This document shows positions 27,891 to 63,294 of a stretch of 64,000 nt of DNA, one piece after another. A program made the position numbers and the translations under genes. The stretch's first letter is position 1; each line of letters begins with the position of its first letter. Origin of the DNA: a bacterium (GTDB taxonomy: Bacteria > Patescibacteriota > Patescibacteriia > 2-01-FULL-39-33); the NCBI GenBank assembly GCA_037130015.1, contig JBAXTU010000001.1, forward strand, positions 5,153-69,152. Direction: 5' to 3'. The notes under the pieces were generated by a model. That model made no database searches. It was not told the origin of the DNA and was given only the letters and a program-made list of their open reading frames with translations.

Positions 27891-27929
27891 CCCGTCATTC
27901 ACTATTGTGAAATGACGGGTTATTTTTTT
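27891..27929. terminator. bidirectional rho-independent terminator between convergent genes
   Basis: Imperfect 12-bp stem CCCGTCATTCAC/GTGAAATGACGGG with a T-run on the + strand and an A-run on the other side. Sits between the 27676 ORF (+) and radA (-). Confidence 0.6.
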
Positions 27930-40319: not shown

Positions 40320-40331
40320 ATTTAATAAAAT

Positions 40332-42674: not shown

Positions 42675-42689
42675 TTTTTTTAAATAATT

Positions 42690-44567: not shown

Positions 44568-44594
44568 ACTTATTTAAAATTTTTATTTAAAAAT

Positions 44595-47500: not shown

Positions 47501-49112
47501 CTCAAGCAATATATTTTTAGGTTCCAGTGCTCAGGTGTTTAATAATCCTGGTGATCCTAATACTATTATTATTCCCACAAATTCAATTGCTATTGGTACT
47601 AATGCTACAATTGGTGTCACCACTACCGCGGGTATAACCAATGCCATTGCTATTGGTGCTAATACTGTGGCCATGGCCTCTAATACTATGGTATTAGGAA
47701 ATGGAGTTAGTGTTGGTATTGGGACAAATAATCCATCTGCTAAACTGGATGTAAGAGGTGGAACTCTTGTTTTTGGTAATATCTATTCAATTGCTAATTT
47801 TAATGACGGGTCACAGCTAGCAGGTAATGGTAAGGGTCTTGTGGTTGGCTATGATTCATCAAAACAATCAACTGTTTTTTGGGCGAATTCAGTCGGTCCA
47901 TCTTCAAATTTTGCTTTTTGGACTTATGATAGTGATAGTACTACGTGGGCTGAAAGAATGACTATTTCGGGTAGTGGTGCTGTCAGTATTCCAGGAGCCT
48001 TAGCGGTTGATAGTTTTAAGCTTGCTACAGGCGCTTCAGTTGGCAATGTCATGACTTCCGATGTTAGTGGCAATGCCTCATGGTTGCCACCTAGCGGTGG
48101 TATAGTTAATGATGTTTATTCATATAATAGTAAAAACATCATGGTAGTTTCTACTACACGAGATAGTTATTTTTTTGGCGGAGCTGGTAACACTACTATG
48201 ACTGGTAACGGTAATACAGGTAGTGGTATGTATTCTCTTAGTTATGATACTACTGGAGGCTTTAATACGGCTTATGGTTATGGTGCTCTTTATCAAAATA
48301 CCACTGGTGGAAATAATGTTGCTGTTGGTGCTACTGCTCTTAGTAATAATACTAGTGGTAGTGGTAATGTAGGTATTGGTTTTAAAGCACTTATGCTTTT
48401 TAATTCTACTAGTGGTGGTAATGTAGGTATTGGTAATAATGCTGGTATGGGTATGGTGAAAGGCGCAAGTAATATTTTTTTAGGTGAGAATGCTCAAGTA
48501 TATAACGAGGCCATTGGCAATACTAATATTAATCCCACAAATTCAATTGCTATTGGTTCTTTGGCACAGATTGGTAATGCACTTACTACAAATATAGACA
48601 ATGCAACCGCTATTGGCTATGGCGCATTGGCAGTCGCATCTAATACTATGGTATTAGGAAATGGAGCTATTAGTGTTGGTATTGGAACAAGCACACCACA
48701 AAATGCATTGCATGTTTATAGTGCTACTGGCCAATCTTACATTTCAGCTGATGCTCCAGCTAATAGAGTGGCTGGTTTTAATATCAGAGAAAACGGAGTT
48801 GTTAAATGGTATATATCTAAATCAAACACCACCACTCCAGCAATTCAGAATGGTGCTTTAAATTTTGCCACTTCTTCAGGGAATGTAATGACATTAGCAC
48901 AAAATGGCAATGTTGGTATTGGCACTTCCACTCCAGCCTCAACGCTTGATGTTAAAGGGACTGTTCGTATAGAAAATAGAAATGTCGTGCCTGCTGTAGG
49001 AATGGGATGGGTTGTTTGTTATGTAAGGGGCACTAATGAATTAGGTCATTGCACTGGCACTGTTTCTGGTGGGGGACAATGTGCTTGTGTTTCTAATACT
49101 CCAGCGAAGTAA
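44595..49112 (+). CDS. surface protein 4 (1505 aa): Cys-rich N-terminus, GIGTTTP repeats, CBM4_9-like module, duplicated YadA-head-like repeat modules
   Basis: Signal peptide (ALA/L). LLVNGDFEMNNMSGWSGNG CBM-like module. Two internal roughly 225-aa modules with NxxAxGxxAL-type repeats (MANGNGALLFNVSG..., NSIAIGTNATIG...). Different C-terminus from genes 1-3. Confidence 0.6.
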   Translation: MMNKKLLTFLGIALIVLGFLLSSHSALALVCTTNTTKSGFYCSSLQNKSWCGNGTLNCDYEPVCSGANQTFTSSDCNSCTCSCTSGYTMCAGDCKISTGDCLPGQQWSPCMGKCVCDSNHCSNNGTCNIVIGSSCTVAFKPGHYNSSCSCVFETPPALLNINDANIYDLILNQGLTVLATTTLAGTNTFATTTVSNLTVNNLCLNNGCNSDWPISGGSNVWVSSGNIIYPTSTVSSVNIGTTTSFVNSRFNVLGNISAISNNYIANSGVGLYLGTFIENNGYVYGGSIIKNINTTNGDGNGFTLPRLGFFTSGVVNGSPAQIAERMSILSGGFVGIGTTTPDSLLTVVGSSWPSATVRLSNGTNTASILKVENDNGAFAELDTAGSGSNIYGLAPGDSILWAKNNLQFGAGGARDARLSISSNGNVGIGTTTPIAKLVVQTTAPSDGIALSDGSKYRAFLANNNSNGAIFGLNENTTLVVRLESNNTSYINNGYNFGIGTTDPKTKLDVQGGIVSANGYNLSDSATDNLLVNGDFEMNNMSGWSGNGVVTSTAGSYSGKYAMQITGSQQILSDDYIPVDPTRDIFQLDAWVKKTVIGGGLYFGYIAYNADKVEITTPPCGTYCYSAAAAYVVPVDSSWHKFSSTMVGEGTVFPNFPVGTKYIRVLGLMNYGGTGGPITLLDHVTLKRLVKGPLIAGNNFSSTGLVDQNQYSTLYTTASNNLIIGSPGNVGIGTTTPESKLHVAGQISTAPSLSGLAGAGLGLQFSNSLKIGIGSDPVSPYGGWFQVSNGIGSSFPLLLNPLGGNVGIGTTTPANKLTVQGGVQIVDGSQANGKVLTSDANGLASWQPAGGIINDVYLYNGARIITVSTTKNNYFFGGAGNTAMTGVNNMANGNGALLFNVSGRDNLANGFGALTNNVSGSNNVANGSGALYNNIIGSGNSAFGYNSLYNSLGGTNIAIGNYSGAGLQNGSSNIFLGSSAQVFNNPGDPNTIIIPTNSIAIGTNATIGVTTTAGITNAIAIGANTVAMASNTMVLGNGVSVGIGTNNPSAKLDVRGGTLVFGNIYSIANFNDGSQLAGNGKGLVVGYDSSKQSTVFWANSVGPSSNFAFWTYDSDSTTWAERMTISGSGAVSIPGALAVDSFKLATGASVGNVMTSDVSGNASWLPPSGGIVNDVYSYNSKNIMVVSTTRDSYFFGGAGNTTMTGNGNTGSGMYSLSYDTTGGFNTAYGYGALYQNTTGGNNVAVGATALSNNTSGSGNVGIGFKALMLFNSTSGGNVGIGNNAGMGMVKGASNIFLGENAQVYNEAIGNTNINPTNSIAIGSLAQIGNALTTNIDNATAIGYGALAVASNTMVLGNGAISVGIGTSTPQNALHVYSATGQSYISADAPANRVAGFNIRENGVVKWYISKSNTTTPAIQNGALNFATSSGNVMTLAQNGNVGIGTSTPASTLDVKGTVRIENRNVVPAVGMGWVVCYVRGTNELGHCTGTVSGGGQCACVSNTPAK

Positions 49113-49126
49113 ATAATTATCTTTAA

Positions 49127-50950
49127 ATGTGGCAAAAAAAACCAAAGCACAAAATAAAATATTTTTTACTGATAATTTTTTCAGCACTTTTTATAATTTC
49201 CGGTTTGTTGTTTTGGCATTTTCAGACGTCCCAAGCTGATCAAAGTGTTCCTTTTTATGGTTGGGTTTGGTCGGAAAATTATGGTTGGATTTCTCTGAAT
49301 TCCGACAATTGTGCTCAGATGTGTTTGGCTGATCCTGTTAATTGTGGTTGCACTAATGTTGGGCAATCCTATGGCATCAAAAAAAATCCAGATAAGACTA
49401 TTAATGGCTATGGTTGGTCAGAGTATATTGGTTGGGTTTGTTTTGGTGATACTTGTTCTGCAAATCCGCCATTTGATAGCACTTCCACTATGAGTATTGA
49501 TACTAATGGCAATATTTCAGGCTGGGCGCAAGTTTTGTCTATGGGTGAAGATGGTTGGATGAAGTTTGGCGGTTATAAAGGTTCTGTGCCGAATGGTCAG
49601 AACTATTCAGGAGAGGCTTGTTATGACTGTACAAAAAAATGTGGTGAGTGGACCACTACTTATTATGCAGATGGCACTACTAGTACCAGCTCGCCTTGTG
49701 TAGTTTATGTGCCTAATGAGTTTAGTAAATGTAATACTTGTTTTACAGCCACGAAATTTAATAATACTCCCTATGCTTCGGCTAATTTACCAGGTCAAAA
49801 GGACAGTGCAGTGGTTGGCGGAAGTGGCTATATGTGTAGTAGTTGTAATAATTGCCAAGTTGAAGGAAATACTGCCAGTGATCACTACCGAGTTAAATGC
49901 AGTGATTGCCAATCTGGTAATTGCTATATGTATGGCGTAGGCAGTGACACATCAAATAGTAACCAATTGGTTGGCTGGGGTTGGAGTGGCGGTAGTAATG
50001 GAGTTGGTTGGGTGCATTTTAATGGTGAAGTTGGTATAGTCAATCCTTGGCTAGAAACCAAATATGGTTCTATTTACAGTTCCAGTACAGTGGGACAAAA
50101 AGCCTCAAATCTTTCTTATAACGCCACTTATTGTATTTTTGCCAATAATTTACAGAATATTAATGTTATCAATGTGGCCAATTGTACAGAAGGCAATGTA
50201 GCTGATAGTAATCTGGGGTTTCCATCTTCGCCTGTCAGTACTGGTCAATATCAGAATGTTTTGGGTAAAATTGATGTTAAAGGCTTAATGACAACAGTAA
50301 AAGGAAGTTATAATAAATATGGTCAAGAGGTGGTGATGCTTGAAGATCCGAATGCTTTGCCGGACGTTTTGGATAATAAAATTTATGTAGTGAGTAGTAC
50401 TGGCCATGATCTTTCTTTATCAAATCCTAAAACTTTTAAAAATGGAACAGAGACTGAAAGAGGAAATGGACTGGTTATTGTTAAAGGGAATTTATTTATT
50501 GGTAATGATATTAGTTATGAATCAAACAGTCCCAGTGATTTAAAGCAATTAGCGTCTGTTGGCTGGTTGGTTTTGGGTGATGTGGTGGTGAGTCCGACAG
50601 TGAAAAATATTGTAGGCGCTTTTGTACTTTTGGGTGGTAAAAAAACAGATGGCAATCAAATTGATTGTAATAAAGACATTAAATTTGCAGATAATTTTCC
50701 GAAATATAAACAAAATGGTTGTGGCGCTTTCTTTTCATTTAATCCAGAGTATAAAGATACTACCAACTTTCCACTTAATGTTTACGGTTTGATTGTGTCC
50801 CATGCTTTTGATTTGCGTCGTACCTATACCAGTTTGTCACAAGGTTCGGAAAGTATTATTTACGATGGCCGTCTTTCGGTCAATCCGCCACCAGGCATGA
50901 CAGGTTTTGTTGAGGCCTTGCCGGTTATTAGAGATTTTGAATATAAATAA
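49127..50950 (+). CDS. secreted Cys-rich protein with GW-containing repeats
   Basis: Signal anchor. Repeated motifs YGWVWSENYGWISL, YGWSEYIGWVCF, GWGWSGGSNGVGWVHF. More than 25 Cys. Unrelated to genes 1-4 outside general composition. Confidence 0.5.
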   Translation: MWQKKPKHKIKYFLLIIFSALFIISGLLFWHFQTSQADQSVPFYGWVWSENYGWISLNSDNCAQMCLADPVNCGCTNVGQSYGIKKNPDKTINGYGWSEYIGWVCFGDTCSANPPFDSTSTMSIDTNGNISGWAQVLSMGEDGWMKFGGYKGSVPNGQNYSGEACYDCTKKCGEWTTTYYADGTTSTSSPCVVYVPNEFSKCNTCFTATKFNNTPYASANLPGQKDSAVVGGSGYMCSSCNNCQVEGNTASDHYRVKCSDCQSGNCYMYGVGSDTSNSNQLVGWGWSGGSNGVGWVHFNGEVGIVNPWLETKYGSIYSSSTVGQKASNLSYNATYCIFANNLQNINVINVANCTEGNVADSNLGFPSSPVSTGQYQNVLGKIDVKGLMTTVKGSYNKYGQEVVMLEDPNALPDVLDNKIYVVSSTGHDLSLSNPKTFKNGTETERGNGLVIVKGNLFIGNDISYESNSPSDLKQLASVGWLVLGDVVVSPTVKNIVGAFVLLGGKKTDGNQIDCNKDIKFADNFPKYKQNGCGAFFSFNPEYKDTTNFPLNVYGLIVSHAFDLRRTYTSLSQGSESIIYDGRLSVNPPPGMTGFVEALPVIRDFEYK

Positions 50951-51011: not shown

Positions 51012-52142
51012 ATGGGATTATTTTCTTCAAACAAAACTAGTTATCTCGGAGTTGATTTGGGTTCGTCTTCAATCAAGGTGGTTGAATTGGCCAATAGCAA
51101 TGGGCGACCGCGACTGGTCACTTATGGTTTTACCGAAAAAAAATTGACTGACAATAATTTTATCAGCAGTAGTGATTTTTTGAATGCCGAAGACGAAATT
51201 GCCAAAACACTCATGGAAGTGTGCAATAAATCGCGTACTTTTTCCAAAAAAGCCGTAGCTGCTTTGCCTAGCTTTGCTGTATTTACTTCTATTTTGAATT
51301 TGCCTGAAATGTCCAAAAAAGAATTGGCTTCAGCTATTACTTGGGAAGCAAAAAAAATAATTCCTATGCCTTTGGAAGAAGTTATTTTGGATTGGAAAAT
51401 TATTTCTCAAGAAGAATATAAAAATGAAGACACTAAAGATCCGGCCGGAGAAGGGGATAACCAACAATTAAATCCTGTTAGTAAAATATTTTCTCATCCT
51501 ACTAAGGGTTTGAAAATTCTGCTCACTGGCGCCAGTAAAAGCTTGGTGCGCAAATATGTGAATATTTTTAATACGGCTGGCGTCTCTTTGCTGAGCTTAG
51601 AAACTGAAAATTTTGCCTTGGTGCGTTCGCTTATTGGCAATGATCAGGCAGTTATTATGATTGTTGATCTTGGAGCCAATTCTTCAAGTATTATGGTGGC
51701 TGAAAAAGGCATACCGGTTATGGCTAGAAGCGTGGAAATGGGAGGAACTCTTATTACTAAGGCTATTTCTAGCAGTCTTAATGTCAATTTGGACAGAGCC
51801 GAACAATTCAAACAGGACATGATGTTAGAAACAAATTCGGCCAGTAATTCTTTGCCACAAACAGTGGAAAAAGCTTTTGCTACAATTCTTAATGAAATTA
51901 AATATACGGTTGGTTTGTATCAAGAACAGCACAATCAAAAAATAGAAAAAATAATTTTGACCGGTGGTAGTGCAAATTTGGGAAATTTGACCGGTTATTT
52001 ATCAAAAGTTTTAAACATCAACGCTTATGTTGGCGATCCTTGGGCTAGAGTTATTTATCCTGTTGAATTAAAGCCGATTTTGGATCGTTTGGGTTCGCGT
52101 TTTTCTGTGGCCATAGGTTTGGCCATGCGCAACATTGAATAA
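51012..52142 (+). CDS. pilM: type IV pilus assembly protein PilM (actin-like ATPase fold)
   Basis: N-terminus YLGVDLGSSSIKVVEL. About 375 aa. Immediately upstream of a PilN-like gene. Confidence 0.75.
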   Translation: MGLFSSNKTSYLGVDLGSSSIKVVELANSNGRPRLVTYGFTEKKLTDNNFISSSDFLNAEDEIAKTLMEVCNKSRTFSKKAVAALPSFAVFTSILNLPEMSKKELASAITWEAKKIIPMPLEEVILDWKIISQEEYKNEDTKDPAGEGDNQQLNPVSKIFSHPTKGLKILLTGASKSLVRKYVNIFNTAGVSLLSLETENFALVRSLIGNDQAVIMIVDLGANSSSIMVAEKGIPVMARSVEMGGTLITKAISSSLNVNLDRAEQFKQDMMLETNSASNSLPQTVEKAFATILNEIKYTVGLYQEQHNQKIEKIILTGGSANLGNLTGYLSKVLNINAYVGDPWARVIYPVELKPILDRLGSRFSVAIGLAMRNIE

Positions 52143-52147
52143 TTTTT

Positions 52148-54118
52148 ATGGCCAGAATAAATCTTCTACCAGAAAATTTACGTGAGCAAGAGCAAAAAGA
52201 AATGGAGAAGACTGCCAGTCGTTCCAAAACTTTTAATGTGGAAATGACCAATCCTGAAATTCAAAAATCAAGATTAAATAAGAGCGACAAACCCAAGGAA
52301 TCATTTTTTAAAAAAATATCCAATGTTTTGGGTCCGGCTAAAACAGTTAAGCCAACAGACGACAGTCTAAGTTATCCGACTTTGCCACCATCTAGATTAT
52401 CATCAGCTGATATTGATTTATTAGCTTTGGCAAAAAAAGATCGTTTTTTACGTCAGCCAGTGCAGGTTTCTGGTCATAATTTTAATCGTGGAATAAAAAT
52501 AAAGTCAGCCGAAGACAAAACTTCATGGAAAGAAGATTTGGGAGTTCCAGAAGTATCAATGAGACAGATGTCCTCGGCTAATAATGCGTCTAATACCAGG
52601 CAAGAGCTTGTTGGTAAAAATTTTAATCCAAAAGTTGTTTTGAGAATGGACAAAGCCAGAAGATGGAATTTTCTTGATTGGCTTTTTGGAGGAAATATAG
52701 ATCAGCCGGCCAAGCCAACTATTCAATCTTTTGGAGAGATGAATGAAAAAAATTCTTCAAAAAATCATTTGATAAAAGCTAAGCCATCTGTTGTCAGAGA
52801 GTTTACAAAAGAACATTATTGGTGGAAAAATTTGTTTTCAGTTTTCGCAAAAACAGAAAAAAAACCGCATTTGCCTATTAAAATGCCAATCATGCCAAAA
52901 TTTCAGCCCCATCAGGCGCCAGTTAAGACAACTGTTGTGCCGTTAACCACAAATGCTGTTTCCAAGGCACCAGTTTTTCCTAAAATAACCAAATCAACAC
53001 AGCCAAAAGGCCAGAGTTGGTGGAGTGTTTTTATGTCTATGTTTGCGTCTAAGCCGAAAAAACCAAAATTACCAATCCATAATATGCAGTCATTGCCAAA
53101 ATTTCAGCCAAAAATGACGCCTATTAAGCCTGTGGTTGTGCCACACCCTGTTCATGTTGCGTCACTAAAACCAATTTTGCCAAAAAACATTAAGCCAAAA
53201 GGACCGAGTTGGTGGAGTAAATTAATGGCAAAATTTAAGGCCAAACCAAAAAAACCACAAATAATTCAAGAAAAAATAAAACCAATTTCTCATGATCTGC
53301 ATCATTATAATTCGGAAATAAAAGATTTAAAACCTCAATATAAATTTGAGACGCCAGCTAGTCATCATGAGCCAATCAAACACGAACAGGCAATTTTAGA
53401 TAAGCCGATTAATCATGACTTGCATCATTATAAACCAGAAGTAAAAGATTTAAATGTTCCGCCACCTTCGCCACTACATCAAGATAAGAAAAAAGTAGAA
53501 GCGCCTCATGTAGAAGCGCCTCACAAAAAAGAATTACCAGAAAAATTAAAAAAGTCACTGGTGGATATTAATTTTATTCCCGAGGATTTGTTGGCGATTA
53601 GTTATTACACTCCGATTTGGAAAACTTTAATTATTCTTTTGGCGGTTATTGTTCCGGCCTCAGCCGTGGTCGGCGCTTATTTTTGGATTGATAAAGAAAG
53701 TCAAAAAGTAAAAAGTGATTTGTTAGTTTCTGAAAAAGTATTAAATGATTTGAATTTTAGTTTATCTGATTATCAAAAGAAAACTAATCAATTAAAAAAC
53801 AGATTAACTACTCTTCAAGGTTTATTAAATTCGCACATCCGTTGGACTAAGTTTTTTACCGCTCTGGAAAAATATACTCTTGACGGTGTTTATTATGGCA
53901 ATTTTTCAGCTGACACTTCTGGACAAGTTGTTTTGCCAGCCACAGCCAAAGATTATGGCACTTTAGCCAGTCAAATTGTCGCTTTAAAAAATGCTACTGA
54001 TTTTGTCAGTGAAGTTAAAGTTGATAATATAAGTATGAAGTCAGACAATAGAGCTGGTATTATCGGAGTTAGTTTTCAGTTAAAAATGGTTTTAGCTGAT
54101 AAATTTTTTACCAAATAA
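52148..54118 (+). CDS. pilN: PilN-like protein with about 470-aa repetitive Pro/Lys-rich cytoplasmic linker
   Basis: N-terminal PilM-binding motif RINLLPENL. Internal imperfect repeats (KPHLPIKMPIMPKFQP / KPKLPIHNMQSLPKFQP; HDLHHYNSEIKDLKP / HDLHHYKPEVKDLNV). Second INFIPEDLL motif just before the single TM. Periplasmic PilN-like C-terminal domain. Confidence 0.55.
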   Translation: MARINLLPENLREQEQKEMEKTASRSKTFNVEMTNPEIQKSRLNKSDKPKESFFKKISNVLGPAKTVKPTDDSLSYPTLPPSRLSSADIDLLALAKKDRFLRQPVQVSGHNFNRGIKIKSAEDKTSWKEDLGVPEVSMRQMSSANNASNTRQELVGKNFNPKVVLRMDKARRWNFLDWLFGGNIDQPAKPTIQSFGEMNEKNSSKNHLIKAKPSVVREFTKEHYWWKNLFSVFAKTEKKPHLPIKMPIMPKFQPHQAPVKTTVVPLTTNAVSKAPVFPKITKSTQPKGQSWWSVFMSMFASKPKKPKLPIHNMQSLPKFQPKMTPIKPVVVPHPVHVASLKPILPKNIKPKGPSWWSKLMAKFKAKPKKPQIIQEKIKPISHDLHHYNSEIKDLKPQYKFETPASHHEPIKHEQAILDKPINHDLHHYKPEVKDLNVPPPSPLHQDKKKVEAPHVEAPHKKELPEKLKKSLVDINFIPEDLLAISYYTPIWKTLIILLAVIVPASAVVGAYFWIDKESQKVKSDLLVSEKVLNDLNFSLSDYQKKTNQLKNRLTTLQGLLNSHIRWTKFFTALEKYTLDGVYYGNFSADTSGQVVLPATAKDYGTLASQIVALKNATDFVSEVKVDNISMKSDNRAGIIGVSFQLKMVLADKFFTK

Positions 54119-54121
54119 TTT

Positions 54122-54757
54122 TTGTTTATGTTAACTAATACAGACGAACAGAACCCAAAAGACAAGGCCAAGAGTGGACGCAAAAAAAAGCGCCTAGGTA
54201 TGATTATTAATAAATATTTTATTTTTATTGCTTTTGGTTTATTTCTTGTAGTTTTAATAGTCGGATATTTTTTGATGCTTAAAGACAATTATGCCAGCTT
54301 GAATCAGGCTCAAGATAAATTATCCCAAGCTAAAAGCGCGGTTATGTTTTTGTCAAAAGAACATCAAGCCATGATAGATAGCCAAGCGCAATCTCCACTG
54401 CTTTCGCCAACAGAAGATCGTTTATTCTCTTTAGCTTTACCAAAAAGTTTTGATTTGCCATCGGCTATTATCCAATTGACCGAGCTTTGTAAGGCCACTG
54501 GTTTTATGGTGACAAAAGTAGATGTGATTGAAAATAATTTAGTTGCAACTAGTGCTTCAGGGCAAAAAGTCGGCAAAGCCAATTTGTCACTCAGCGTGGT
54601 TGGTGGTGACTATGATGCTTGGAAAAGATTGCTTTTGGCCTTGGAACAAAGCGTGATGATTGTTGATGTTAGTAGTATTGATTTTAATTCGCAAAGCGCT
54701 AATTATAAATTAAATTTGACCGCTTACTATTATCCGGATACTGATACTAAACAATAA
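54122..54757 (+). CDS. pilO: PilO-like bitopic protein
   Basis: One N-terminal TM, a predicted coiled coil, then an alpha/beta domain. Position is right after pilN. Confidence 0.4.
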   Translation: MFMLTNTDEQNPKDKAKSGRKKKRLGMIINKYFIFIAFGLFLVVLIVGYFLMLKDNYASLNQAQDKLSQAKSAVMFLSKEHQAMIDSQAQSPLLSPTEDRLFSLALPKSFDLPSAIIQLTELCKATGFMVTKVDVIENNLVATSASGQKVGKANLSLSVVGGDYDAWKRLLLALEQSVMIVDVSSIDFNSQSANYKLNLTAYYYPDTDTKQ

Positions 54758-54761
54758 TTTT

Positions 54762-55058
54762 ATGAAAAAAATCAGAAGCATAATTATTTTTTTAGGATTG
54801 ATAGCCATTGTTATTTTGGCTAGTATTTTGGTGTGGTTAAATTGGTCTGAGGTTGTTAATTTTTTAGCCAGTCCGCAAAATCAGGTTGTACCAATTAAAC
54901 AAAAAACAAATCAAGATGCTGTTTTACGAGAAATGAAAAATACGACTATGCCAAAAATAGAAGGATTTAGGCAATATGGTGAGTGGCCACTTTCACAAGT
55001 GCCACTAAGTGAAGGTAGGGGTAATCCTTTTTTGGAAAAAACAGCGACCACAAGATAA
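54762..55058 (+). CDS. small single-TM protein (possible PilP-like)
   Basis: 98 aa with an N-terminal TM. Position in the pilMNO operon. Confidence 0.3.
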   Translation: MKKIRSIIIFLGLIAIVILASILVWLNWSEVVNFLASPQNQVVPIKQKTNQDAVLREMKNTTMPKIEGFRQYGEWPLSQVPLSEGRGNPFLEKTATTR

Positions 55059-55078: not shown

Positions 55079-56857
55079 TTGTATAAATTGCCTCTGTGTG
55101 AATATATAATGGTGTTTAATAGCTCTGAAAAAAAAATTAAGGACTTCCTGTTGCAAAAAAAATTGGTTAGCGTTTCAAAAATGGCCGAAATTGAAGATAA
55201 GGTCAGAAGGAATGATAAAACATTGGAAGATACCTTGGTTCAAGAAAAAGTGTTTACCTCTAAGGATTTTAATAATCTGAAAGGGGAAGTTTTTGGTTTA
55301 CCAGTCGTTGATTTATCGGAATTAACCATTGAATCTGCTGTGCTTAATATACTCACCCAAAAAGTGGCTCAAAATTATCAAATGGTGATTTTTGCCAAAC
55401 GCAAAATGGAAGTGAGTGTGGGCATGGTACGGCCGGATGATTTTCAGGCGCATGAAGCGGTGGAATTTTTGTGCAATAGCCAAGGATTTAGGCCAAAATA
55501 TTTTGTTATTTCAGCTCAGGATTGCCGTACGATTTTGAATCAATATAGTGGTTTCAAAAAAGAAATCGGTTCGGCTGTGGCCGCGGCTGAAGAAAAATTC
55601 GCCAAAAAAGAAAAATTAGTTTCTCAACGCGGAGATTCTAATGAAAATATGGGCGAAGTTATTAAAAGCGCGCCCGTGGCTAAAATTGTTTCGGTGATTT
55701 TCAAGCATGCTCTTGAGGGTGGTGCCAGTGATATTCATATTGAACCAGGCTTTAATGAAGGTAGAGTGCGTTATCGTGTTGATGGTATGCTTCGTACTTC
55801 TCTGACTTTACCAAACTATTTATACCCGGCGGTTATTTCTCGTATCAAGGTATTGGCGAATTTAAAACTTGATGAAATGCGTTTGCCTCAAGACGGACGT
55901 ATTCGCACCAAAGTAGATGATCAGGATGTTGATTTGCGTGTTTCAGTTTTACCAACTATTGATCAGGAAAAGGTGGTGATTCGTGTTTTTGACAGCTCAA
56001 CTGGCGTGCCGACTTTGGCTGAACTAGGCTTTAATGAAAATCATATCAGTATTATTGAACGCAATATCAAAAAGCCGTATGGTTTATTTTTACTCACTGG
56101 CCCGACAGGCAGTGGCAAAACAACTACTTTATATTCTGTTTTGAATATGATCAATGCCGAGACCACTAATATTGTCACACTGGAAGATCCGGTTGAATAT
56201 TATATTGATGGCATTAGCCAGTCGCAGATTAATGCTGATATTGGTTTTACTTTTGTCAGCGGACTGCGCGCTGTTTTGCGTCAAGATCCCAATATTATCA
56301 TGGTTGGAGAAATCAGGGATAATGACACAGTGGAACTAGTCATTCATGCTGGACTGACCGGGCATTTGGTTTTTTCCACTCTGCACACTAATAACGCTTG
56401 GGGTGCTATTCCGCGATTAGTAGATATGAAAGCCGAGCCGTTTTTATTGTCTTCTACTCTCAATTTAGTGATGGCTCAACGCTTGGTTCGCAAGATTTGT
56501 CCTGATTGTAAAGAAGAAATAAAATTAACACCAAATATTTTGGCAAAAATTCAGGATAAAATTGATACTATTCCACCGGTTTATTTGGAAGGAATAAAAA
56601 AGACCACTTTTTATAAGGGCAAGGGCTGTCAAAGTTGCAGTAATAGCGGTTATTCAGGGCGTATGGTAGTGGGAGAAATTCTAGAAATGGACAGTGCTAT
56701 GAAAGATTTGATTTCCACCAACTATAATAGCAGTGCCAATTTGGAAGAAGCTCTGAAACATCAAAATTTTATTTCTTTGACACAAGACGCAGTACTCAAA
56801 GCCCTGCAAGGATTTACCACAGTGGAAGAGGTGATTAGGGTTTCGCAAGAACAATAG
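55079..56857 (+). CDS. pilB: type IV pilus assembly ATPase PilB/GspE family
   Basis: Intact Walker A LLTGPTGSGKTTT, Asp box TLEDPVEY, Walker B IIMVGEIRD, His box TGHLVFSTLHTN, tetracysteine CPDC...CQSC. Confidence 0.9.
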   Translation: MYKLPLCEYIMVFNSSEKKIKDFLLQKKLVSVSKMAEIEDKVRRNDKTLEDTLVQEKVFTSKDFNNLKGEVFGLPVVDLSELTIESAVLNILTQKVAQNYQMVIFAKRKMEVSVGMVRPDDFQAHEAVEFLCNSQGFRPKYFVISAQDCRTILNQYSGFKKEIGSAVAAAEEKFAKKEKLVSQRGDSNENMGEVIKSAPVAKIVSVIFKHALEGGASDIHIEPGFNEGRVRYRVDGMLRTSLTLPNYLYPAVISRIKVLANLKLDEMRLPQDGRIRTKVDDQDVDLRVSVLPTIDQEKVVIRVFDSSTGVPTLAELGFNENHISIIERNIKKPYGLFLLTGPTGSGKTTTLYSVLNMINAETTNIVTLEDPVEYYIDGISQSQINADIGFTFVSGLRAVLRQDPNIIMVGEIRDNDTVELVIHAGLTGHLVFSTLHTNNAWGAIPRLVDMKAEPFLLSSTLNLVMAQRLVRKICPDCKEEIKLTPNILAKIQDKIDTIPPVYLEGIKKTTFYKGKGCQSCSNSGYSGRMVVGEILEMDSAMKDLISTNYNSSANLEEALKHQNFISLTQDAVLKALQGFTTVEEVIRVSQEQ

Positions 56858-56875: not shown

Positions 56876-57271
56876 TTGAATAATTCTATGCCTAAAGCGG
56901 TAAAAGCAAACACTATACTCATCGTGGAGGACGATGTCTTTTTGGCTGATTTATATCGGACCAAATTTGAATTGGAGGGATTCAAAGTCTATGTAGCCTA
57001 TGACGGAGAAAAAGGCTGGGAAAGCGTCAAAAAAAATCTGCCACAGGTGGCGTTATTGGATTTGGTTTTGCCGAAAATGAACGGTTTTCAGGTATTAGAA
57101 AATATGAAAGCTGAGGCCTCAACCAAAAATATTCCAGTTATTATTTTGACCAACTTAAGTCAGAAAGCTGATATAGAAAAAGGACTAAAAATGGGCGCCA
57201 ATGATTATCTAATTAAAGCGCATTTTATGCCGTCGGAAGTGGTTGCTAAAATTCAGAAATTAATTAAATAG
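56876..57271 (+). CDS. single-domain response regulator (CheY/PilH-like receiver)
   Basis: ILIVEDD, phospho-acceptor context LLDLVLPKMNG, and ILTNLSQKAD. 131 aa with no output domain. Confidence 0.8.
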   Translation: MNNSMPKAVKANTILIVEDDVFLADLYRTKFELEGFKVYVAYDGEKGWESVKKNLPQVALLDLVLPKMNGFQVLENMKAEASTKNIPVIILTNLSQKADIEKGLKMGANDYLIKAHFMPSEVVAKIQKLIK

Positions 57272-57274: not shown

Positions 57275-58354
57275 ATGGAAACATCTAGATTTTTATTGGT
57301 TAAAACTATTCTGGCTGAAGCGGTCAAGCGGGGAGCGCAGGATTTGCATTTTTCGGTTGGTGGTAATCCCTGTTTGCGTATCAATGGAGAATTACTTTCT
57401 ATGGAAGATAAGGAGATAATTACGCAGGATTTCATGGAAAAATTTATCAATCTAATTTTGACCGAAGATCAAAAAGCCAAATTAAATTCCGATAGGGAAA
57501 TTATTATTACTTATGATTTTGAAAATAATCTTCGTTTTAAAATAAATATTTTTTATCAAAAGAATTTTCTATCTGCCACTTTGCGTTATATTCCGACAGA
57601 TATTCCCACAGTCGCTTCGCTGGGACTTAATCCTGTAATCAAAGATTTTATCAAATTCAAAAAAGGCTTGGTAATTGTGGCTGGGCCATTTGGTTCTGGA
57701 CGCTCCACCACTGTGGCTGCCTTGCTTGATGCTATTAATCAAGAAAGAAAAGAATATATTATCACCATTGAAAATCCGATTGAATATGTTTTTACCAACA
57801 ATCAAAGTGTAATTGAACAAAGGGAAATAGGCCGTGATACCAAATCATTTGCCGATGCCTTGGCTTATTTTCAGGAAGAAGACGGTGATATTTTGTTTGT
57901 GGAAGAATTAGAAGACCCTCAGATTATTCCTGCGGTTTTGGAAATAGCTCGTGGCAGTTCATTGGTTTTTACGGCTCTTACGGCCTCATCTGTTTCTAAT
58001 GCTGTTAGTCGTATTTTGGATAGTTTTACTAGTTTTGACCAAGAAAGAGTGCGTGATCAATTATCCACAGCGCTTAAAGGGATTGTTTGTCAAAAAATCT
58101 TGCCAAAAATCGGTGGAGGAGTGATAGTTGTTAATGAAATTATGATAGCCAATGAAGCCATTGTTTCAATAATTGCCAATGGTAATGTGTCGCAAATAGA
58201 CAATATTATCCAAACTTCACGTAGAGATGGTATGATTTCTTTTGACCAGGCTTTGGCTGAATTGGTGCATCAGCATAAGATTTCCAATGAAGACGCTATG
58301 GACAATGCCATCAACAAAAAAACTTTGGAAAAAATGATTTCTTCAAAAGAATAA
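57275..58354 (+). CDS. PilT-like retraction-ATPase paralogue with degenerate catalytic motifs
   Basis: Collinear with the PilT consensus, but Walker A is GPFGSGRSTT (Arg CGC replaces the P-loop Lys), Asp box is ENPIE, Walker B region is DILFVEELED, and the His box reads RGSSLVFTALTA with both His lost. The C-terminal IGGG..NEIMI region is conserved. Confidence 0.7.
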   Translation: METSRFLLVKTILAEAVKRGAQDLHFSVGGNPCLRINGELLSMEDKEIITQDFMEKFINLILTEDQKAKLNSDREIIITYDFENNLRFKINIFYQKNFLSATLRYIPTDIPTVASLGLNPVIKDFIKFKKGLVIVAGPFGSGRSTTVAALLDAINQERKEYIITIENPIEYVFTNNQSVIEQREIGRDTKSFADALAYFQEEDGDILFVEELEDPQIIPAVLEIARGSSLVFTALTASSVSNAVSRILDSFTSFDQERVRDQLSTALKGIVCQKILPKIGGGVIVVNEIMIANEAIVSIIANGNVSQIDNIIQTSRRDGMISFDQALAELVHQHKISNEDAMDNAINKKTLEKMISSKE

Positions 58355-58363: not shown

Positions 58364-59572
58364 ATGTCAGTTTATTCTTATAAAGCTAAAAATAAAAGAG
58401 GCCAATTAATTGAAGGTATAGTTGATGCCTCTAGTGAAGATGCTGTTTCCAATATGCTTCATGAGAAGGAATTGGCTATTATTAATATTGGCAAAAGGGA
58501 ACAGGCTAATGCCGAGGAATACAAATTTAATTTTTTGCGTCGGGTAAAAAACAAGGAATTAGTGGTTTTTTTTAGACAAATGGCTGTCATGATTAATGCT
58601 AATTTACCGATTGTCAAAATTTTGCGTATTTTGGTGCGTCAAACATCTGATAAAAATTTAAAAAGCATAATTGCTCATGTGGCCGATGAAGTTGATGGCG
58701 GTGCCAAATTATCAGAGGCCATGGGTGAATTTCATGACACTTTTTCTGATTTTTATGTAAATATGATCCGTTCTGGTGAGACATCAGGACGACTTAGTGA
58801 AGTCATGGATTATTTGGCCAGTCAGCAAGAGAGTGATTACGAACTTCAATCCAAAGTTCGTGGCGCCATGATTTATCCGATTTTTATTTTAGCTGGTTTG
58901 GCACTGGTAGGCGGAATTGTGATGGTTTTTGTCATTCCTCAAATCACCAGTGTGCTCAAAGAGTCTGGCGTGGTTTTGCCTTGGTCAACTCAGGCGCTTA
59001 TCTGGACGGCTGAATTTTTGAAAAATTTTTGGTGGGCTATAATTTTATCGTTGGCTTTATTATCGGTTATAATTAATTTTTATGTGCATACACCTTCTGG
59101 TCGTTATGCGTTTGATGTGTTCAAGCTAAAAATTCCGATTTTTGGCAAGATTTTTAAAAATATTTATATTGTAAGACTTATGCGGAGTTTTTCTACTTTG
59201 CTTAAGGGTGGTGTGCCAGTAAGTCGGGCCCTAGAAGTGGTACGTGATGTTGTTGGTAGTCGGGTGTATGAAGATATTTTGACCAGAACAATTGCCAATG
59301 TGGACGAAGGCAATCCCATTGCCGAAAGTTTGTCTGATAGTAAACATATTCCAGTGCTGGTGTCGCAAATGATCAGTGTGGGTGAGGAAAGTGGCAAATT
59401 GGAAGAGGTAGTAGAAAAAATTACGGATTTTTATGATCGGGAGATTGATAATAGTGTACGAAATTTGTCAGTGCTTATTGAGCCCATAGTCATGATTTTC
59501 TTGGGTTTGGCGGTTGGTTTTTTTGTGGCGGCCGTGATTTTGCCCATGTGGCAATTATCAGCTGCTATGTAA
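58364..59572 (+). CDS. pilC: type IV pilus inner-membrane platform protein PilC/GspF family
   Basis: Two GspF repeats, three TM helices, 402 aa. Lies between the PilT-like gene and the pilin. Confidence 0.8.
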   Translation: MSVYSYKAKNKRGQLIEGIVDASSEDAVSNMLHEKELAIINIGKREQANAEEYKFNFLRRVKNKELVVFFRQMAVMINANLPIVKILRILVRQTSDKNLKSIIAHVADEVDGGAKLSEAMGEFHDTFSDFYVNMIRSGETSGRLSEVMDYLASQQESDYELQSKVRGAMIYPIFILAGLALVGGIVMVFVIPQITSVLKESGVVLPWSTQALIWTAEFLKNFWWAIILSLALLSVIINFYVHTPSGRYAFDVFKLKIPIFGKIFKNIYIVRLMRSFSTLLKGGVPVSRALEVVRDVVGSRVYEDILTRTIANVDEGNPIAESLSDSKHIPVLVSQMISVGEESGKLEEVVEKITDFYDREIDNSVRNLSVLIEPIVMIFLGLAVGFFVAAVILPMWQLSAAM

Positions 59573-59769: not shown

Positions 59770-60159
59770 ATGAAAAAACAGCAAGGTTTTACCTTAATTG
59801 AACTTTTGATCGTTATTGCTATCATTGGTTTATTGTCTTCTTTGGCTGTGGTCTCTTTGTCCGGCGCCAGAAACAAAGCCTATGATGCTCAAATCAAAAG
59901 CGATCTCGCTCAAGTCAGAACCAGTTTGGAAATGTCAGCTTCTGATAATGGCGGTAGTTATGCTGCATGGACTATGCCAGCCAATATTAACGCCCCGGCT
60001 TGTTCTGGTACTAAATATGTGGCTAGTACTACTGCTATTGGATTTAGAGTTTATGGTCAGTTGTGTGCTAATACGGCTCAATATTTTTGTATTGATGGCA
60101 ATGGCAATGTCACTACCACGTCAGCTGTTCCGACTGCTGGTGCAGAAACTTGTTTATAA
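59770..60159 (+). CDS. type IV major pilin (class III signal peptide)
   Basis: MKKQQG/FTLIELLIVIAIIGLL prepilin leader with E at +5. C-terminal Cys pairs. 129 aa. Confidence 0.85.
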   Translation: MKKQQGFTLIELLIVIAIIGLLSSLAVVSLSGARNKAYDAQIKSDLAQVRTSLEMSASDNGGSYAAWTMPANINAPACSGTKYVASTTAIGFRVYGQLCANTAQYFCIDGNGNVTTTSAVPTAGAETCL

Positions 60160-60173
60160 ATTTAAGTTGTTTC

Positions 60174-60210
60174 AAAATCCCCTCGGCCTTGGTTGAGGGG
60201 ATTTTTGTTT
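60174..60210 (+). terminator. rho-independent terminator after pilin gene
   Basis: Stem AAAATCCCCTC/GAGGGGATTTT with loop GGCCTTGGTT, followed by TTGTTT. Confidence 0.7.
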
Positions 60211-60232
60211 ATAAGTATTTTTGTGCTATAAT
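60205..60232 (+). promoter_or_regulatory. promoter: TTGTTT, 16-nt spacer, TGcTATAAT
   Basis: -35-like element at 60205-60210. Extended -10 at 60224-60232. Upstream of the 60259 ORF and the pilD operon. Confidence 0.4.
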
Positions 60233-60258
60233 ATAGTCATAAAAATAATAATTTTTGT

Positions 60259-60672
60259 TTGTTTATGACCATGAGGACGCGTTTCAAAATCAGCGTTTAT
60301 TTTCTATTGTTTGTCATGGCTAGCACCGGATTGGGTTTTTTGATGTGGTATAATAGTGTACAAATTCGTGATTATAAGCGCTTGTCTGACATGACTGATA
60401 TTCAATCTCGTCTAAATATTTATTTTTTGCACTACAGCAGTTATCAGGTTGATGGCTGTTCCAGTGGTTTGATAGTCAGTGATTGCAAAGGCAGTGCTGA
60501 CAGGCCTTCATTTTTAGGCGGAATTACTGATCAACTTGGTGGTAATTACGCTTATGTTTTTTCGGCTTTGAGTCAAAATGACTATAAAGTAAGTTTTGTT
60601 TTAGAAACCAAAGTTGGTGGTTTTGCGCCTGGCCGTTATTTTTTGACTCCCAGTGGAATTAGTGATAAATAA
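60259..60672 (+). CDS. hypothetical membrane-anchored protein
   Basis: N-terminal TM (ISVYFLLFVMASTGLGFLMW). 137 aa. No prepilin cleavage motif. Confidence 0.45.
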   Translation: MFMTMRTRFKISVYFLLFVMASTGLGFLMWYNSVQIRDYKRLSDMTDIQSRLNIYFLHYSSYQVDGCSSGLIVSDCKGSADRPSFLGGITDQLGGNYAYVFSALSQNDYKVSFVLETKVGGFAPGRYFLTPSGISDK

Positions 60673-61455
60673 ATGCTGTTTTATTTTTTTATTTTTATTT
60701 TCGGGCTGATTATTGGCAGTTTTTTGAATGTGGTGATTTTGAGATTAAATAACGGCGAGAAAATTTCCGGGTCTCGTTCGCATTGCCCGCATTGTCAAAA
60801 AGTTTTGAGTCCGCATGAATTGTGGCCGGTTATTAGTTTTATTTTACAAAAAGGCAAGTGTAAAAATTGTAAAGCAAAAATTTCCTGGCAATATCCGTTG
60901 GTTGAACTTTCTACTGCTTTATTGTTTATTTTGGTGTCATACGTGTATTGGGGCAATATTGGCATTGATTTTTTGAGTGATTCTTGGCAGTCATATTTGC
61001 CATGGCTGAGAAATTTATTTTTTGTGTGTGTGCTGGTAGTTATTTTTGTTTATGATTTGCGATGGCAATTAATTTTGGATAAAGTGACTTTGCCGGCCAT
61101 GGCTATAGCTTTGATTGTTAATTTGTGGCTTGGTTATGGCTTTAAAAATTTATTGCTGGGTATGTTGGTGGCCGGAGGATTTTTTTTGGCACAATTTTTA
61201 ATTTCTGGCGGTCGCTGGATTGGCGGGGGAGATATTCGCATGGGAGCACTCATAGGTCTGATGCTTGGTTGGCCAAACACATTAGTGGCCTTGTTTCTGT
61301 CGTATGTTATTGGCGCGTTTTTTGGCGTATGTCTGATGATTTTGGCTCACAAAGATGGCCAGACCAAAGTGGCTTTTGGATCGTTTCTGGCTGTTGGCAC
61401 GATTATTGCTCTTTTGTGGGGCACACAAATTATGAACAAATTTTGGGCGATATAA
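60673..61455 (+). CDS. pilD: prepilin peptidase (A24 family, PilD)
   Basis: N-terminal Zn-binding CPHC...CKNC. Polytopic. Catalytic-region motif GGGDIRMGALIG. Confidence 0.8.
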   Translation: MLFYFFIFIFGLIIGSFLNVVILRLNNGEKISGSRSHCPHCQKVLSPHELWPVISFILQKGKCKNCKAKISWQYPLVELSTALLFILVSYVYWGNIGIDFLSDSWQSYLPWLRNLFFVCVLVVIFVYDLRWQLILDKVTLPAMAIALIVNLWLGYGFKNLLLGMLVAGGFFLAQFLISGGRWIGGGDIRMGALIGLMLGWPNTLVALFLSYVIGAFFGVCLMILAHKDGQTKVAFGSFLAVGTIIALLWGTQIMNKFWAI

Positions 61456-61459
61456 TTTT

Positions 61460-61984
61460 ATGAAAAAAATAAAAAATAATTTTGGTTTTACTTTGGCGGA
61501 AATGATGGTGGTAATAGCTATTACCGGTATTTTATCCAGTATGGCGTTGATAAATTTTCGCACCAACGAAAAACAACGTCAGTTGCGAGATTCAGCACTG
61601 CTAGTCACCGACGGTTTTAAACGTTTGCAAAGTATGGCTTTGTCCGGTGATATGGTGGGTGGTGCTATGCCTATTAGTTATAATTTTTATCTTAACCCTG
61701 CTGATTGCAGTCAATACATTTTACGCGCCAAGCTTGATGAAGCAAATTATATTGCAATCGGTCAAACTGTAAAATTAATAAATTCCAATATTAAAGATTG
61801 TTCTAATATTGGAGAAGTAGAAATTTATCCTCCACGAGCCAATATGGAATTTTTAAATTTTCCATCGTATGATGAAATTTCTTTAGTTGTTGAATATAAT
61901 GGTGATGGCTCATCTGCTCGTACGGTTAAGATAAACAAAGTTTCTGGTAGAGTTGATTTGGGCGCGCAAATGGCTAATCCTTAA
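61460..61984 (+). CDS. minor pilin / pseudopilin
   Basis: Leader MKKIKNNFG/FTLAEMMVVIAITGIL. Confidence 0.7.
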   Translation: MKKIKNNFGFTLAEMMVVIAITGILSSMALINFRTNEKQRQLRDSALLVTDGFKRLQSMALSGDMVGGAMPISYNFYLNPADCSQYILRAKLDEANYIAIGQTVKLINSNIKDCSNIGEVEIYPPRANMEFLNFPSYDEISLVVEYNGDGSSARTVKINKVSGRVDLGAQMANP

Positions 61985-61989
61985 AAAAT

Positions 61990-62685
61990 ATGAGATCCCT
62001 GGTCGAGCCAGGGATGACAAAAAACATGAAAAATATTTTAAAAGACAATTCAGGTCAAACATTAATAGAGCTACTCACGGCTATTGGTATTATTAGTATT
62101 GGTCTTTTTAGTGTTTGGAATTTATTTTTGTCCAATTTTTCTGGTGAGCAATCGGCTCGTGATCGTGTGGTTGGTTCAAATTTGGCGCGCGAAGGCATGG
62201 AAGTGGTCAGAAATATACGAGACACTAATTGGCTAAAAGTGGATGTTAATGATAGCGCTTGCGGTCTTGCCAGTGATGAATTGTGTCAGTGGGATGATGG
62301 TTTGACTGGTGGAAATACAGCTGTGATTGGTAATATTGTAGTTAAGAGTGATTTAAATTTGATTTATAAAAACGGCGAAGCTTTGATAGCTTCCATTGAC
62401 GATCCTATGGCCAAGATTTATTTGAATGCTGATGGTTTTTTTAATAATGATGCTACCGGTTCAAGCACACCTTTTAGTAGAATAATAAAATTACAAAATA
62501 TTTGTTGTCTTGATGCGACCGCTGATTTAAAATGTGATAATACTAATTTTGTCACTTCAACTGTTAGTGGCTGTCCAGTAGATTGGCTGAAAATCGGTAT
62601 GGATGTGGAATGCATAGTCGCTTGGAATATTTCGGGACGAACAGAAAGTATCAAAGCTCAAGATCAACTTTTTAATTGGCGTTAA
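61990..62685 (+). CDS. minor pilin (PilV-like)
   Basis: ...NSGQTLIELLTAIGIISIGLF prepilin-like N-terminus. The true start is probably the internal ATG at 62027. Confidence 0.6.
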   Translation: MRSLVEPGMTKNMKNILKDNSGQTLIELLTAIGIISIGLFSVWNLFLSNFSGEQSARDRVVGSNLAREGMEVVRNIRDTNWLKVDVNDSACGLASDELCQWDDGLTGGNTAVIGNIVVKSDLNLIYKNGEALIASIDDPMAKIYLNADGFFNNDATGSSTPFSRIIKLQNICCLDATADLKCDNTNFVTSTVSGCPVDWLKIGMDVECIVAWNISGRTESIKAQDQLFNWR

Positions 62686-62688
62686 TTT

Positions 62689-63294
62689 ATGTTAAAAATA
62701 TTTAAAAAAGCCTGCCTGACTGGTAGGCAGGTAAAAAAACAAAACGGCTTTACTTTGGCGGAGATGATGGTGACAATGAGTGTTTTTGCCATCACTTCCG
62801 TGATGTTATCCGGCATTTTTGTTAATATTAGCCATATACAAAAAAATACGGAAAATTTTCAACGTTTACAAAACGATGGCCGTTATATGATTGAAAAATT
62901 GGCGCGTGAAATTCGCGGACGTGAATTGCGTTATCCCGCTAATATGACGAATTATTTATTTTTTGAAAAAGATGAAAACGGACAAATAGTTTTGGTTTGT
63001 TTTGATTCTACTAATAAGCTTTTGAAATATTATGTCACTGGTCAGGATAATGAGGCCACAGTTGAAAATTGCAAAAGTTATGGTGCTGATCTTAATGCTG
63101 GTGATGTTGAAATTGATGATGTTAAATTTTTAGTTTATCCGCAAATCGCTGACAAGTGGGGTACAGCGCCGACAGTTAATGCCCAACCGCGTGTCACCGT
63201 GATGCTTAATTTAAAAAACAAAACAGACAACCCTGTTTTTCAAAGGCAATTATCCATTCAAACGACAATTTCAGGTAAGGTTTATAAGCGTTAA
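62689..63294 (+). CDS. minor pilin (PilW-like)
   Basis: ...KQNG/FTLAEMMVTMSVFAITSVML. Long 20-aa leader. Confidence 0.65.
   Translation: MLKIFKKACLTGRQVKKQNGFTLAEMMVTMSVFAITSVMLSGIFVNISHIQKNTENFQRLQNDGRYMIEKLAREIRGRELRYPANMTNYLFFEKDENGQIVLVCFDSTNKLLKYYVTGQDNEATVENCKSYGADLNAGDVEIDDVKFLVYPQIADKWGTAPTVNAQPRVTVMLNLKNKTDNPVFQRQLSIQTTISGKVYKR

Follow-up and report, generated by a model that had tools for sequence, protein, structure and literature searches.

The 64,000-nucleotide stretch of a Patescibacteria genome analysed here (the window; positions 5,153 to 69,152 of contig JBAXTU010000001.1, assembly GCA_037130015.1) contains a complete type IV pilus (T4P) operon on its forward strand, within which lies an open reading frame (ORF) for a catalytically degenerate protein of the PilT/PilU family (57275..58354; 359 aa). 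The gene adjoins pilB and a regulator gene on one side and pilC on the other. The extension ATPase PilB (55079..56857; T2SSE, 1.1e-122; MshEN) is followed by a single-domain CheY-like response regulator of 131 aa (56876..57271), and the ATG start of the PilT-family gene falls 3 nt past the stop codon of the regulator gene; the platform protein PilC (58364..59572; T2SSF, 1.2e-62) comes next. The name PilT* is used for the degenerate PilT clade of Patescibacteria (candidate phyla radiation, CPR) that includes this ORF. On balance, the evidence described below somewhat favors the view that PilT* is the operon's own PilT, maintained as a pseudo-ATPase and no longer a normal ATP-driven retraction motor.

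The original prediction had described the product as PilT-like and collinear with the PilT consensus, and comparison with solved structures bears this out. Its alignment with the PilT of Aquifex aeolicus (2ewv; E 1.9e-77) is collinear across residues 4-356, that with Geobacter PilT4 (6ojx; E 7e-70) runs end to end, and its identity to solved PilTs is 34-38%. Family membership is clear from PF00437 (T2SSE; E 6.8e-22, 78 bits against a cutoff of 24.9), and the AlphaFold2 (AF2) model has the two-domain PilT fold (pLDDT 93.9, pTM 0.90), matching 6ojx in Foldseek with a TM-score of 0.92 and a root-mean-square deviation of 1.8 Å. TIGR01420 is passed narrowly, at 330.5 bits against a cutoff of 319.1, where a canonical CPR PilT scores 427.2 bits. 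Length, two-domain fold, P-loop frame, Asp-box Glu, QRE, GGG loop and pilB/pilC neighborhood are all shared with canonical PilT (2ewv, 6ojx and Pseudomonas aeruginosa PilT, 3jvv); in contrast to the canonical proteins, PilT* is without the Walker A Lys, both His-box histidines, the GEMRD Arg, one Arg finger (now Lys) and the AIRNLIRE motif, and has Glu at the Walker B Gly. Judged by its sequence, PilT* is a PilT homologue and orthologue, yet it fails as a PilT by motif definition.

Published work assigns roles to the altered residues. ATP binding by PilT-like ATPases requires the Walker A Lys (PMC5424180; PMC6762196). Their Walker B has Gly where an acidic residue would stand, followed directly by the catalytic Glu; Mg is coordinated by the Asp-box Glu (in PilB), and a His of the His box makes contact with the gamma-phosphate (PMC5424180). 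These residues, together with two Arg fingers, are completely or highly conserved across the PilT-like ATPases (PMC5424180; PMC6762196). In P. aeruginosa PilT (PaPilT, whose numbering is used below unless noted), H229 coordinates the gamma-phosphate, and the substitutions E204A and H229A each abolish twitching (10.1101/672212). R206 is normally invariant, and a natural R206S variant in the PilT of Vibrio cholerae MO10 causes a retraction defect (PMC6762196). Residues of the PaPilT ring interfaces are also known: E219 is part of the closed (C) and R294 of the open (O) interface, R294E lowers PilC binding, and T216 contacts H229.

Read against these roles, the motifs of the window's protein are partly altered and partly preserved. 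In Walker A, GPFGSGRST (57683..57709; aa 137-145 of this protein; codons ggg cca ttt ggt tct gga cgc tcc acc) stands for the GPTGSGKST of PaPilT, with Phe for Thr and Arg143 (CGC, 57701-57703) for the Lys of GxxGxGK[ST]; the glycines and the Ser/Thr are kept. The Asp box, IENPIE (57767..57784), has Asn for the Asp of the PaPilT IEDPIE and retains both glutamates, E166 and E170 (PaPilT E159 and E163), the Mg-coordinating Glu among them. The EQREIGRD stretch (57815..57838) contains Q175, R176, E177 and D181, which are 86-100% conserved in canonical and degenerate sets. The Walker B region, DGDILFVEELED (57881..57916), corresponds to DPDIILVGEMRD in P. aeruginosa PilT and to DPDVIFVGEMRD in A. 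aeolicus PilT (2ewv alignment); within it, in DILFVEELED, Gly203 and Arg206 are both replaced by Glu and the catalytic Glu204 is kept as E211, leaving neither the Dhhhh-G-E pattern nor the GEMRD Arg. The His-box equivalent, RGSSLVFTALTA (57950..57985; ETGHLVFGTLHT in PaPilT), has Ser for His222 and Thr for His229, and E219, T220 and G221 are likewise replaced. In the Arg-finger region of the N-terminal domain, LRFKINIFYQKNFLSATLRYIP (57530..57595), R80 and R97 are kept (R97 as R104) and R82 is Lys; the two Arg fingers were assigned by inference from the 15-residue spacing of R271 and R286 in GmPilB (PMC5424180).

Each of the replacements named in the original prediction (Arg in the P-loop of GSGRST, ENPIE for EDPIE, EELED for GEMRD and the loss of both histidines) was thus recovered at the codon or residue in question. 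Its broader statement that all catalytic signatures are degenerate goes too far: the Lys, the His and the GEMRD Arg are lost, but the catalytic Glu, both Asp-box glutamates, the P-loop glycines, the Walker A Ser/Thr, QRE and one Arg finger survive. Its claim of a conserved C-terminal region holds for the KIGGGV loop (58106..58123; G274 and G275 kept) and the NEIMI stretch that follows; the AIRNLIRE equivalent, which begins past the region it quoted, is degenerate and reads AIVSIIAN (58157..58180). The neighboring PilB was correctly described as retaining every motif (GPTGSGKTT, LEDPVE, DPNIIMVGEIRD, LTGHLVFSTLHT and a CxxC...CxxC zinc motif).

AIRNLIRE distinguishes PilT proper from PilU, the PilT-dependent accessory retraction ATPase, and its absence is a feature that PilT* shares with PilU within the PilT family. 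Unlike PilT*, PilU keeps a canonical Walker A, Walker B and His box (PMC6762196), and PilT* fits PilT structures better than PilU (264 bits versus 166). An identification as PilU was rejected on the grounds that PilU retains the catalytic motifs and that the PilT* gene occupies the pilT slot of the operon.

The absence of key catalytic residues could in principle reflect a decaying pseudogene, or a sequencing or assembly artifact at the P-loop codon, but this reading is so improbable as to be negligible and was excluded. Here, as in more than 160 relatives (340-365 aa), the reading frame is unbroken and of full length. An independent assembly in ENA (L025) matches the window without a difference across 12,490 bases, and neighboring genes of the same organism recur in further assemblies. 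Conversion of CGC to AAA or AAG requires three base changes, and Arg occupies this position in 98% of close relatives. A sequencing error in this codon, a concern raised with the original prediction, is ruled out by the identity of L025 and by this conservation.

Purifying selection on the gene is equally evident. For the unsaturated pair L030/L031, pilT* has a dN of 0.017, a dS of 0.25-0.32 and a dN/dS of 0.05-0.07, equal to or lower than the values of its neighbors pilC (0.065-0.105), the pilB fragment (0.08-0.10) and the regulator gene (0.09). For L023/L024, where dS is saturated, dN is 0.053 for pilT*, 0.054 for pilB, 0.079 for pilC, 0.128 for pilD and 0.111 for ligA. The low dN/dS and the large number of intact relatives uphold the earlier view of a maintained gene rather than a decaying one. 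Between loci, PilT* identity tracks that of PilB and PilC. In canonical lineages PilT exceeds PilC in identity by 8 to 23 points (mean +18), whereas in PilT* lineages the difference averages -1.2 points and falls as low as -17. The disappearance of this surplus suggests that the extra constraint imposed by catalysis was lost and that PilT* is constrained like other parts of the machine.

A search of 5.8 billion proteins gave 393 matches at E<1e-20, and the best 120, which were inspected, are all of Patescibacteria type, 247-368 aa long (mostly ~355 aa), and show a similar loss of motifs. Among 87 close relatives (49-65% identity) the replacement residues are themselves conserved (Phe132 97%, Arg136 98%, Glu194 97%, Glu/Asp203 94% and Glu216 93%), which was counted as support for a maintained pseudo-ATPase. 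None of the 87 has a His-box histidine, all have E159 and E163, and N291, R294 and E295 of AIRNLIRE are lost. Some positions are less uniform. The Asp-box Asp is kept in 72% of close relatives, making the Asn of the present protein a minority state, and Glu204 is kept in 50%; Gln, Lys, Asn and Arg are frequent substitutes family-wide, and the pair P0007/P0008 has Arg or Lys there. A second group (40-47% identity) and ~48 further representatives of 50%-identity clusters repeat the theme with other residues: Walker A has Arg or Lys, and the His box typically reads 'SGRLV...'.

The substitution pattern, for which a check of relatives had been proposed, is common to 168 PilT* sequences. Lys136 is kept in 32 (19%), Glu204 in 85 (51%), His222 in 6 (4%), His229 in 1 (0.6%) and Arg206 in 6 (4%), whereas all five residues are present in each of 240 canonical Patescibacteria PilTs; the combination of Lys136, Glu204 and His229 occurs in 0/168 PilT* and 240/240 canonical proteins. 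The same contrast appears across the 82 reference columns that are invariant in the 240 canonical proteins and identical in PaPilT. With kept defined as presence in at least 80% of close relatives, 41 of these columns are kept and 23 lost, the latter concentrated in Walker A, Walker B, the His box and AIRNLIRE. The lost columns include K136, R82 (now Lys), R194, G203, R206, T216, E219-H222, H229, T230, N291, L292, R294 and E295; those kept include R80, R97, G130, G133, G135, E159, E163, Q175-E177, D181, D242, G274, G275 and E281. In a rough neighbor-joining (NJ) tree all degenerate sequences form one clade, sister to the canonical Patescibacteria PilTs and with a few partly degenerate forms at its base, a monophyly that long-branch attraction may have inflated. 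PilT* is regarded as a large, old clade of CPR PilT proteins.

Orthology was addressed through gene order. Canonical Patescibacteria PilTs (P0133 and relatives) carry GPAGHGKTT, IEDPIE, GEMRD and ETGHLVFSTLHT, with mutual identities of 81-97%. Their operon, as found in L026 (a contig of 1.08 Mb) and L027, reads pilM-pilN-pilO-x-pilB-regulator-pilT-pilC-pilin-pilD-minor pilins-ligA-gatC-gatA. In some Paceibacteria (L019, L021) the order pilT-pilC-pilin-pilD-minor pilins-ligA-gatCA is kept and the pilB half lies elsewhere. This split, seen in L019-L022 as opposed to L026/L027, places the pilT part after mraY, with the pilM-pilB-regulator half at another location. PilT* occupies the canonical pilT slot beside pilB and pilC in the window, which L028 continues, and in L001-L004, L023, L024 and L030, and it does so in 14 further genome loci (L005-L018) wherever flanks exist. 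The full gene order through ligA and gatCA accompanies PilT* in the window plus L028 and in L001, L003, L023 and L024. Because PilT* and the canonical PilT of Paceibacteria share this slot, PilT* is the positional orthologue of the operon's canonical PilT and not an extra copy. The canonical proteins of Paceibacteria type (P0133, P0405, P0423) resemble PilT* in operon slot and in their sister position in the rough tree; they differ in being far more conserved than PilC, their 81-97% identity extending across many metagenomes, whereas PilT* evolves at the PilC rate. The term 'paralogue' in the original prediction does not survive, given the shared slot and the single pilT match reported for each of two closed ABY1 genomes.

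Those closed genomes bear on copy number. Patescibacterium danicum belongs to class ABY1 and is placed in 'Falkowbacteria' in the NCBI taxonomy (PMC11809585), and for two circular ABY1 genomes (939 and 917 kb) single entries are given for pilT (K02669), pilB, pilC and pilM, against two for comEC (PMC11809585, Table S5). The named PilT* matches are Falkowbacteria and Buchananbacteria, both of class ABY1, and a 'Patescibacteria group', and the labels suggest that the single pilT of the closed ABY1 genomes is the degenerate form. Named canonical matches are Paceibacterota, Minisyncoccia, Parcubacteria, Taylorbacteria and Azambacteria, with the exception of two metagenome-assembled genomes (MAGs) labeled Bacteroidales and Atribacteria that are probably mis-binned; the named lineages of the two sets do not overlap.

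PilT* might instead, as in the paralogue model of the original prediction, serve as an adaptor or accessory subunit in mixed or stacked rings, alongside a canonical PilT or PilU whose gene lies elsewhere in the genome. The present genome was seen over 64 kb plus ~6 kb, which leaves room for such a partner, and PilU/PilT pairs and catalytically dead PilT adaptors are known (PMC6762196), as are database entries for tandem PilT-PilT fusions with one degenerate module. However, PilT* fills the slot of the canonical operon PilT rather than an additional one. As the original prediction had stated, no intact PilT is present in the locus. Nor is there one in the rest of the window, where no other T2SSE-family ORF was found in the 64 kb, or in the ~6 kb beyond. 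Likewise, no second PilT lies within 10 kb on either side in ~20 fetched loci, each of which has one PilT-like ORF. No contig is common to the best 120 PilT* and the 240 canonical CPR PilT matches, which is weak evidence although many contigs are 0.2-1.1 Mb long, and the separation of the named lineages and the single pilT match of the closed ABY1 genomes point the same way. An adaptor function is therefore considered improbable, and PilT* is presumed to be the sole PilT copy of this particular genome.

The tandem fusions deserve mention in their own right. These database proteins, encoded outside the window (P0121-P0128, P0140, P0145 and P0189), are 700-1020 aa long and contain two full PilT modules per chain. 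Some pair a degenerate with a canonical module; the N-terminal module of P0128 reads GNRGSGRSC and LEGKLVIATYLG, and P0189 and P0123 are partly degenerate. Their sequences suggest that mixed active and inactive PilT rings exist elsewhere.

Returning to the proposal that PilT* is a maintained pseudo-ATPase, a pseudoenzyme is a homologue within an enzyme family that lacks the conserved catalytic motifs by sequence (PMC10211241). PilT* answers to this description and to that of a protein under purifying selection (dN/dS 0.05-0.07, with a dN equal to that of pilB). The clade has replaced the Walker A Lys, the His-box His, the GEMRD Arg and one Arg finger, as well as AIRNLIRE in the close relatives, while keeping the fold, the P-loop glycine frame and Ser/Thr, the Mg-binding Asp-box Glu and QRE. 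The P-loop frame and the Mg ligands are conserved, as are some of the arginines of the network, which suggests that nucleotide is still bound. Conversely, with the gamma-phosphate sensor, R206 and AIRNLIRE lost and the catalytic Glu unconserved family-wide, it can be argued that the ATP-driven open/closed cycle of retraction is gone. ATPase activity has thus apparently been lost, and these bacteria probably use PilT* as a non-motor part of the pilus machine.

Several observations weigh against this interpretation. The loss of hydrolysis is a deduction from sequence, and the protein of the window keeps its catalytic Glu. Close relatives have an acidic residue in place of the Walker B Gly, which restores a classical hhhhD/E-E Walker B and, combined with the kept Glu, makes an unorthodox active site conceivable. 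Residues of the inter-subunit interfaces have changed (E219, R239 in part, R294 and T216), so that ring formation and docking on PilC are not assured. Dead PilT of V. cholerae gives no retraction by itself (PMC6762196), and a role as brake or clutch is without direct precedent. Copy number was judged indirectly, from fetched loci, contig comparisons, named lineages and published gene counts. Finally, the CheY-like regulator adjoins canonical PilT as well, and is hence not specific to PilT*.

The unorthodox active site leads to an alternative in which PilT* is still a working retraction ATPase, with Arg in place of the P-loop Lys, the acidic residue 203 and Glu211 forming the classical Walker B, and other residues sensing the gamma-phosphate. 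Strong conservation of the P-loop frame, the Walker A Ser/Thr, the Asp-box Glu, QRE and Arg97, retention of Glu204 in the present protein, Glu/Asp203 in 94% of close relatives, and purifying selection as strong as that on PilB are all in keeping with it. On the other hand, Glu204 persists in only half of the close relatives and of the family, His229 and Arg206 in 1 and 6 of the 168 sequences, and the extra conservation that marks catalytic PilTs has been lost. Furthermore, Walker A flips between Arg and Lys, and no alternative catalytic residue is conserved family-wide. A Walker A Lys-to-Arg change typically keeps binding and cripples hydrolysis, slowing it by orders of magnitude, as in RecA K72R. 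Continued motor activity is accordingly judged unlikely, if somewhat less so than an adaptor function, and the pseudo-ATPase remains the preferred explanation.

As a maintained pseudo-ATPase, PilT* would assemble as a PilT-like ring and bind nucleotide, hydrolyzing it very slowly or not at all. The ring would dock on the PilC/PilM platform in competition with PilB, and extension would stop. PilT* might then act as a brake or clutch, either permitting passive, unpowered disassembly of the pilus or holding the pilus static, and the CheY-like regulator encoded between pilB and pilT* is a possible input governing this action. Retained nucleotide binding and ring formation, competition with PilB and the part played by the regulator are all conjectural elements of this scheme. 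In its boldest form, which is offered tentatively and may well prove wrong, the sole PilT-family protein of a large part of the Patescibacteria would be a non-hydrolyzing ring locked in one nucleotide state that replaces PilB on PilC and, under the CheY-like regulator, switches the pilus to unpowered disassembly or to a lock. A motor would have turned into a nucleotide-gated clutch, and these episymbionts would retract pili or take up DNA without a retraction motor.

The regulator is the most conserved protein of the operon, with 99% identity in L023/L024 and 68-78% identity between the window and close relatives. As read from the sequence, it has the usual features: an acidic pocket, the Asp that accepts the phosphoryl group, and both the Thr and the Lys position. 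No histidine kinase partner was found among the larger ORFs of the window that were scanned.

Known systems offer partial parallels. ATPase-inactivated PilT of V. cholerae keeps a structural role and supports PilU-dependent retraction (PMC6762196), a precedent for a non-catalytic PilT*, although PilU is needed there. The engineered inactive PilTs (K136A, E204A) and MO10 R206S resemble PilT* in that catalysis is crippled and the proteins still fold and have a structural role (PMC6762196); they differ in depending on an active PilU and in being laboratory or recent variants, whereas PilT* is ancient and under selection and no PilU was seen. The PilT1-4 paralogues of Geobacter keep their motifs. 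The archaellum protein FlaH is RecA-like, binds ATP without turnover and modulates a motor. Its likeness to PilT* extends to the general idea only, as FlaH belongs to a different fold family and is encoded by a separate gene rather than being a degenerate copy of the motor.

Full-text literature searches found no description of a degenerate or pseudo-ATPase PilT. The PilT of Saccharibacteria has been described with ATP-binding and hydrolysis sites (PMC12206443), and genome papers on Patescibacteria list 'PilT, retraction ATPase' without comment (PMC11809585; PMC7143001; PMC6744442). What appears to be new here, as far as sequences can tell, is a pilus retraction motor that persists under selection, throughout a lineage, in pseudo-ATPase form. 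Automatic annotation (TIGR01420, K02669) calls PilT* an ATPase despite the failed motif definition. If a crippled PilT is indeed the only one in a major branch of the phylum, metabolic and lifestyle reconstructions that assume powered retraction and twitching would need to be revisited for PilT* lineages, and a motor of the secretion superfamily would join those enzymes from which non-catalytic forms have arisen and been kept by selection. Host attachment and DNA uptake in Patescibacteria are believed to depend centrally on type IV pili. Lineages with canonical PilT (Paceibacteria and, reportedly, Saccharibacteria) and lineages with PilT* would then constitute a natural experiment on the non-ATPase roles of PilT. 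The question of what PilT does apart from hydrolyzing ATP becomes testable with PilT*, which should come as a surprise to pilus specialists.

The remainder of the operon conforms to the gene order of other loci. Upstream of pilB, pilM (start 51012), a long pilN-like gene (start 52148), a pilO-like gene (start 54122) and a 98-aa ORF occupy 51012..55058 on the forward strand, with synteny seen in other loci. Downstream of pilC, a pilin gene (start 59770), a 137-aa ORF, pilD (60673..61455) and three minor-pilin-like ORFs extend over 59770..63294 on the same strand, and Pfam marks fall on the same genes in L028. The pilN-like product (52148-54118) has 656 aa, compared with 416-491 aa in relatives; a stretch rich in Lys and Pro, containing diverged repeats (e.g., ...SWWS.FMSMFASKPKKPKLPI...PKFQP...), accounts for the difference, in a gene where Tandem Repeats Finder reported only a trivial 15-base, 1.9-copy repeat (53495-53523).

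Directly upstream of pilM, on the same strand (38868-50950), lie large ORFs of 483, 780, 625, 1505 and 607 aa without a Pfam match. Comparable large ORFs stand upstream of pilM in L001, L003, L023 and L024, and these may encode pilus-associated surface proteins. Farther from the operon, the regions 20836-22848 (forward strand) and 29259-32004 (reverse strand) contain a VirB4/TraG-like P-loop ATPase and two proteins with TrbC/VirB2-like type IV secretion pilin domains (one of the two is a fusion with a lytic transglycosylase domain), which suggests a type IV secretion-like system in this part of the genome. A giant ORF of 3103 aa lies at 4900-14211; the ORF that follows it has 936 aa and no Pfam match. 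Genes for DNA uptake and repair are also found near the pilus locus, at 23432-29256. Their products are ComFC-like (a double zinc ribbon with a phosphoribosyltransferase domain), RecG, and a RadA/Sms-like protein on the reverse strand.

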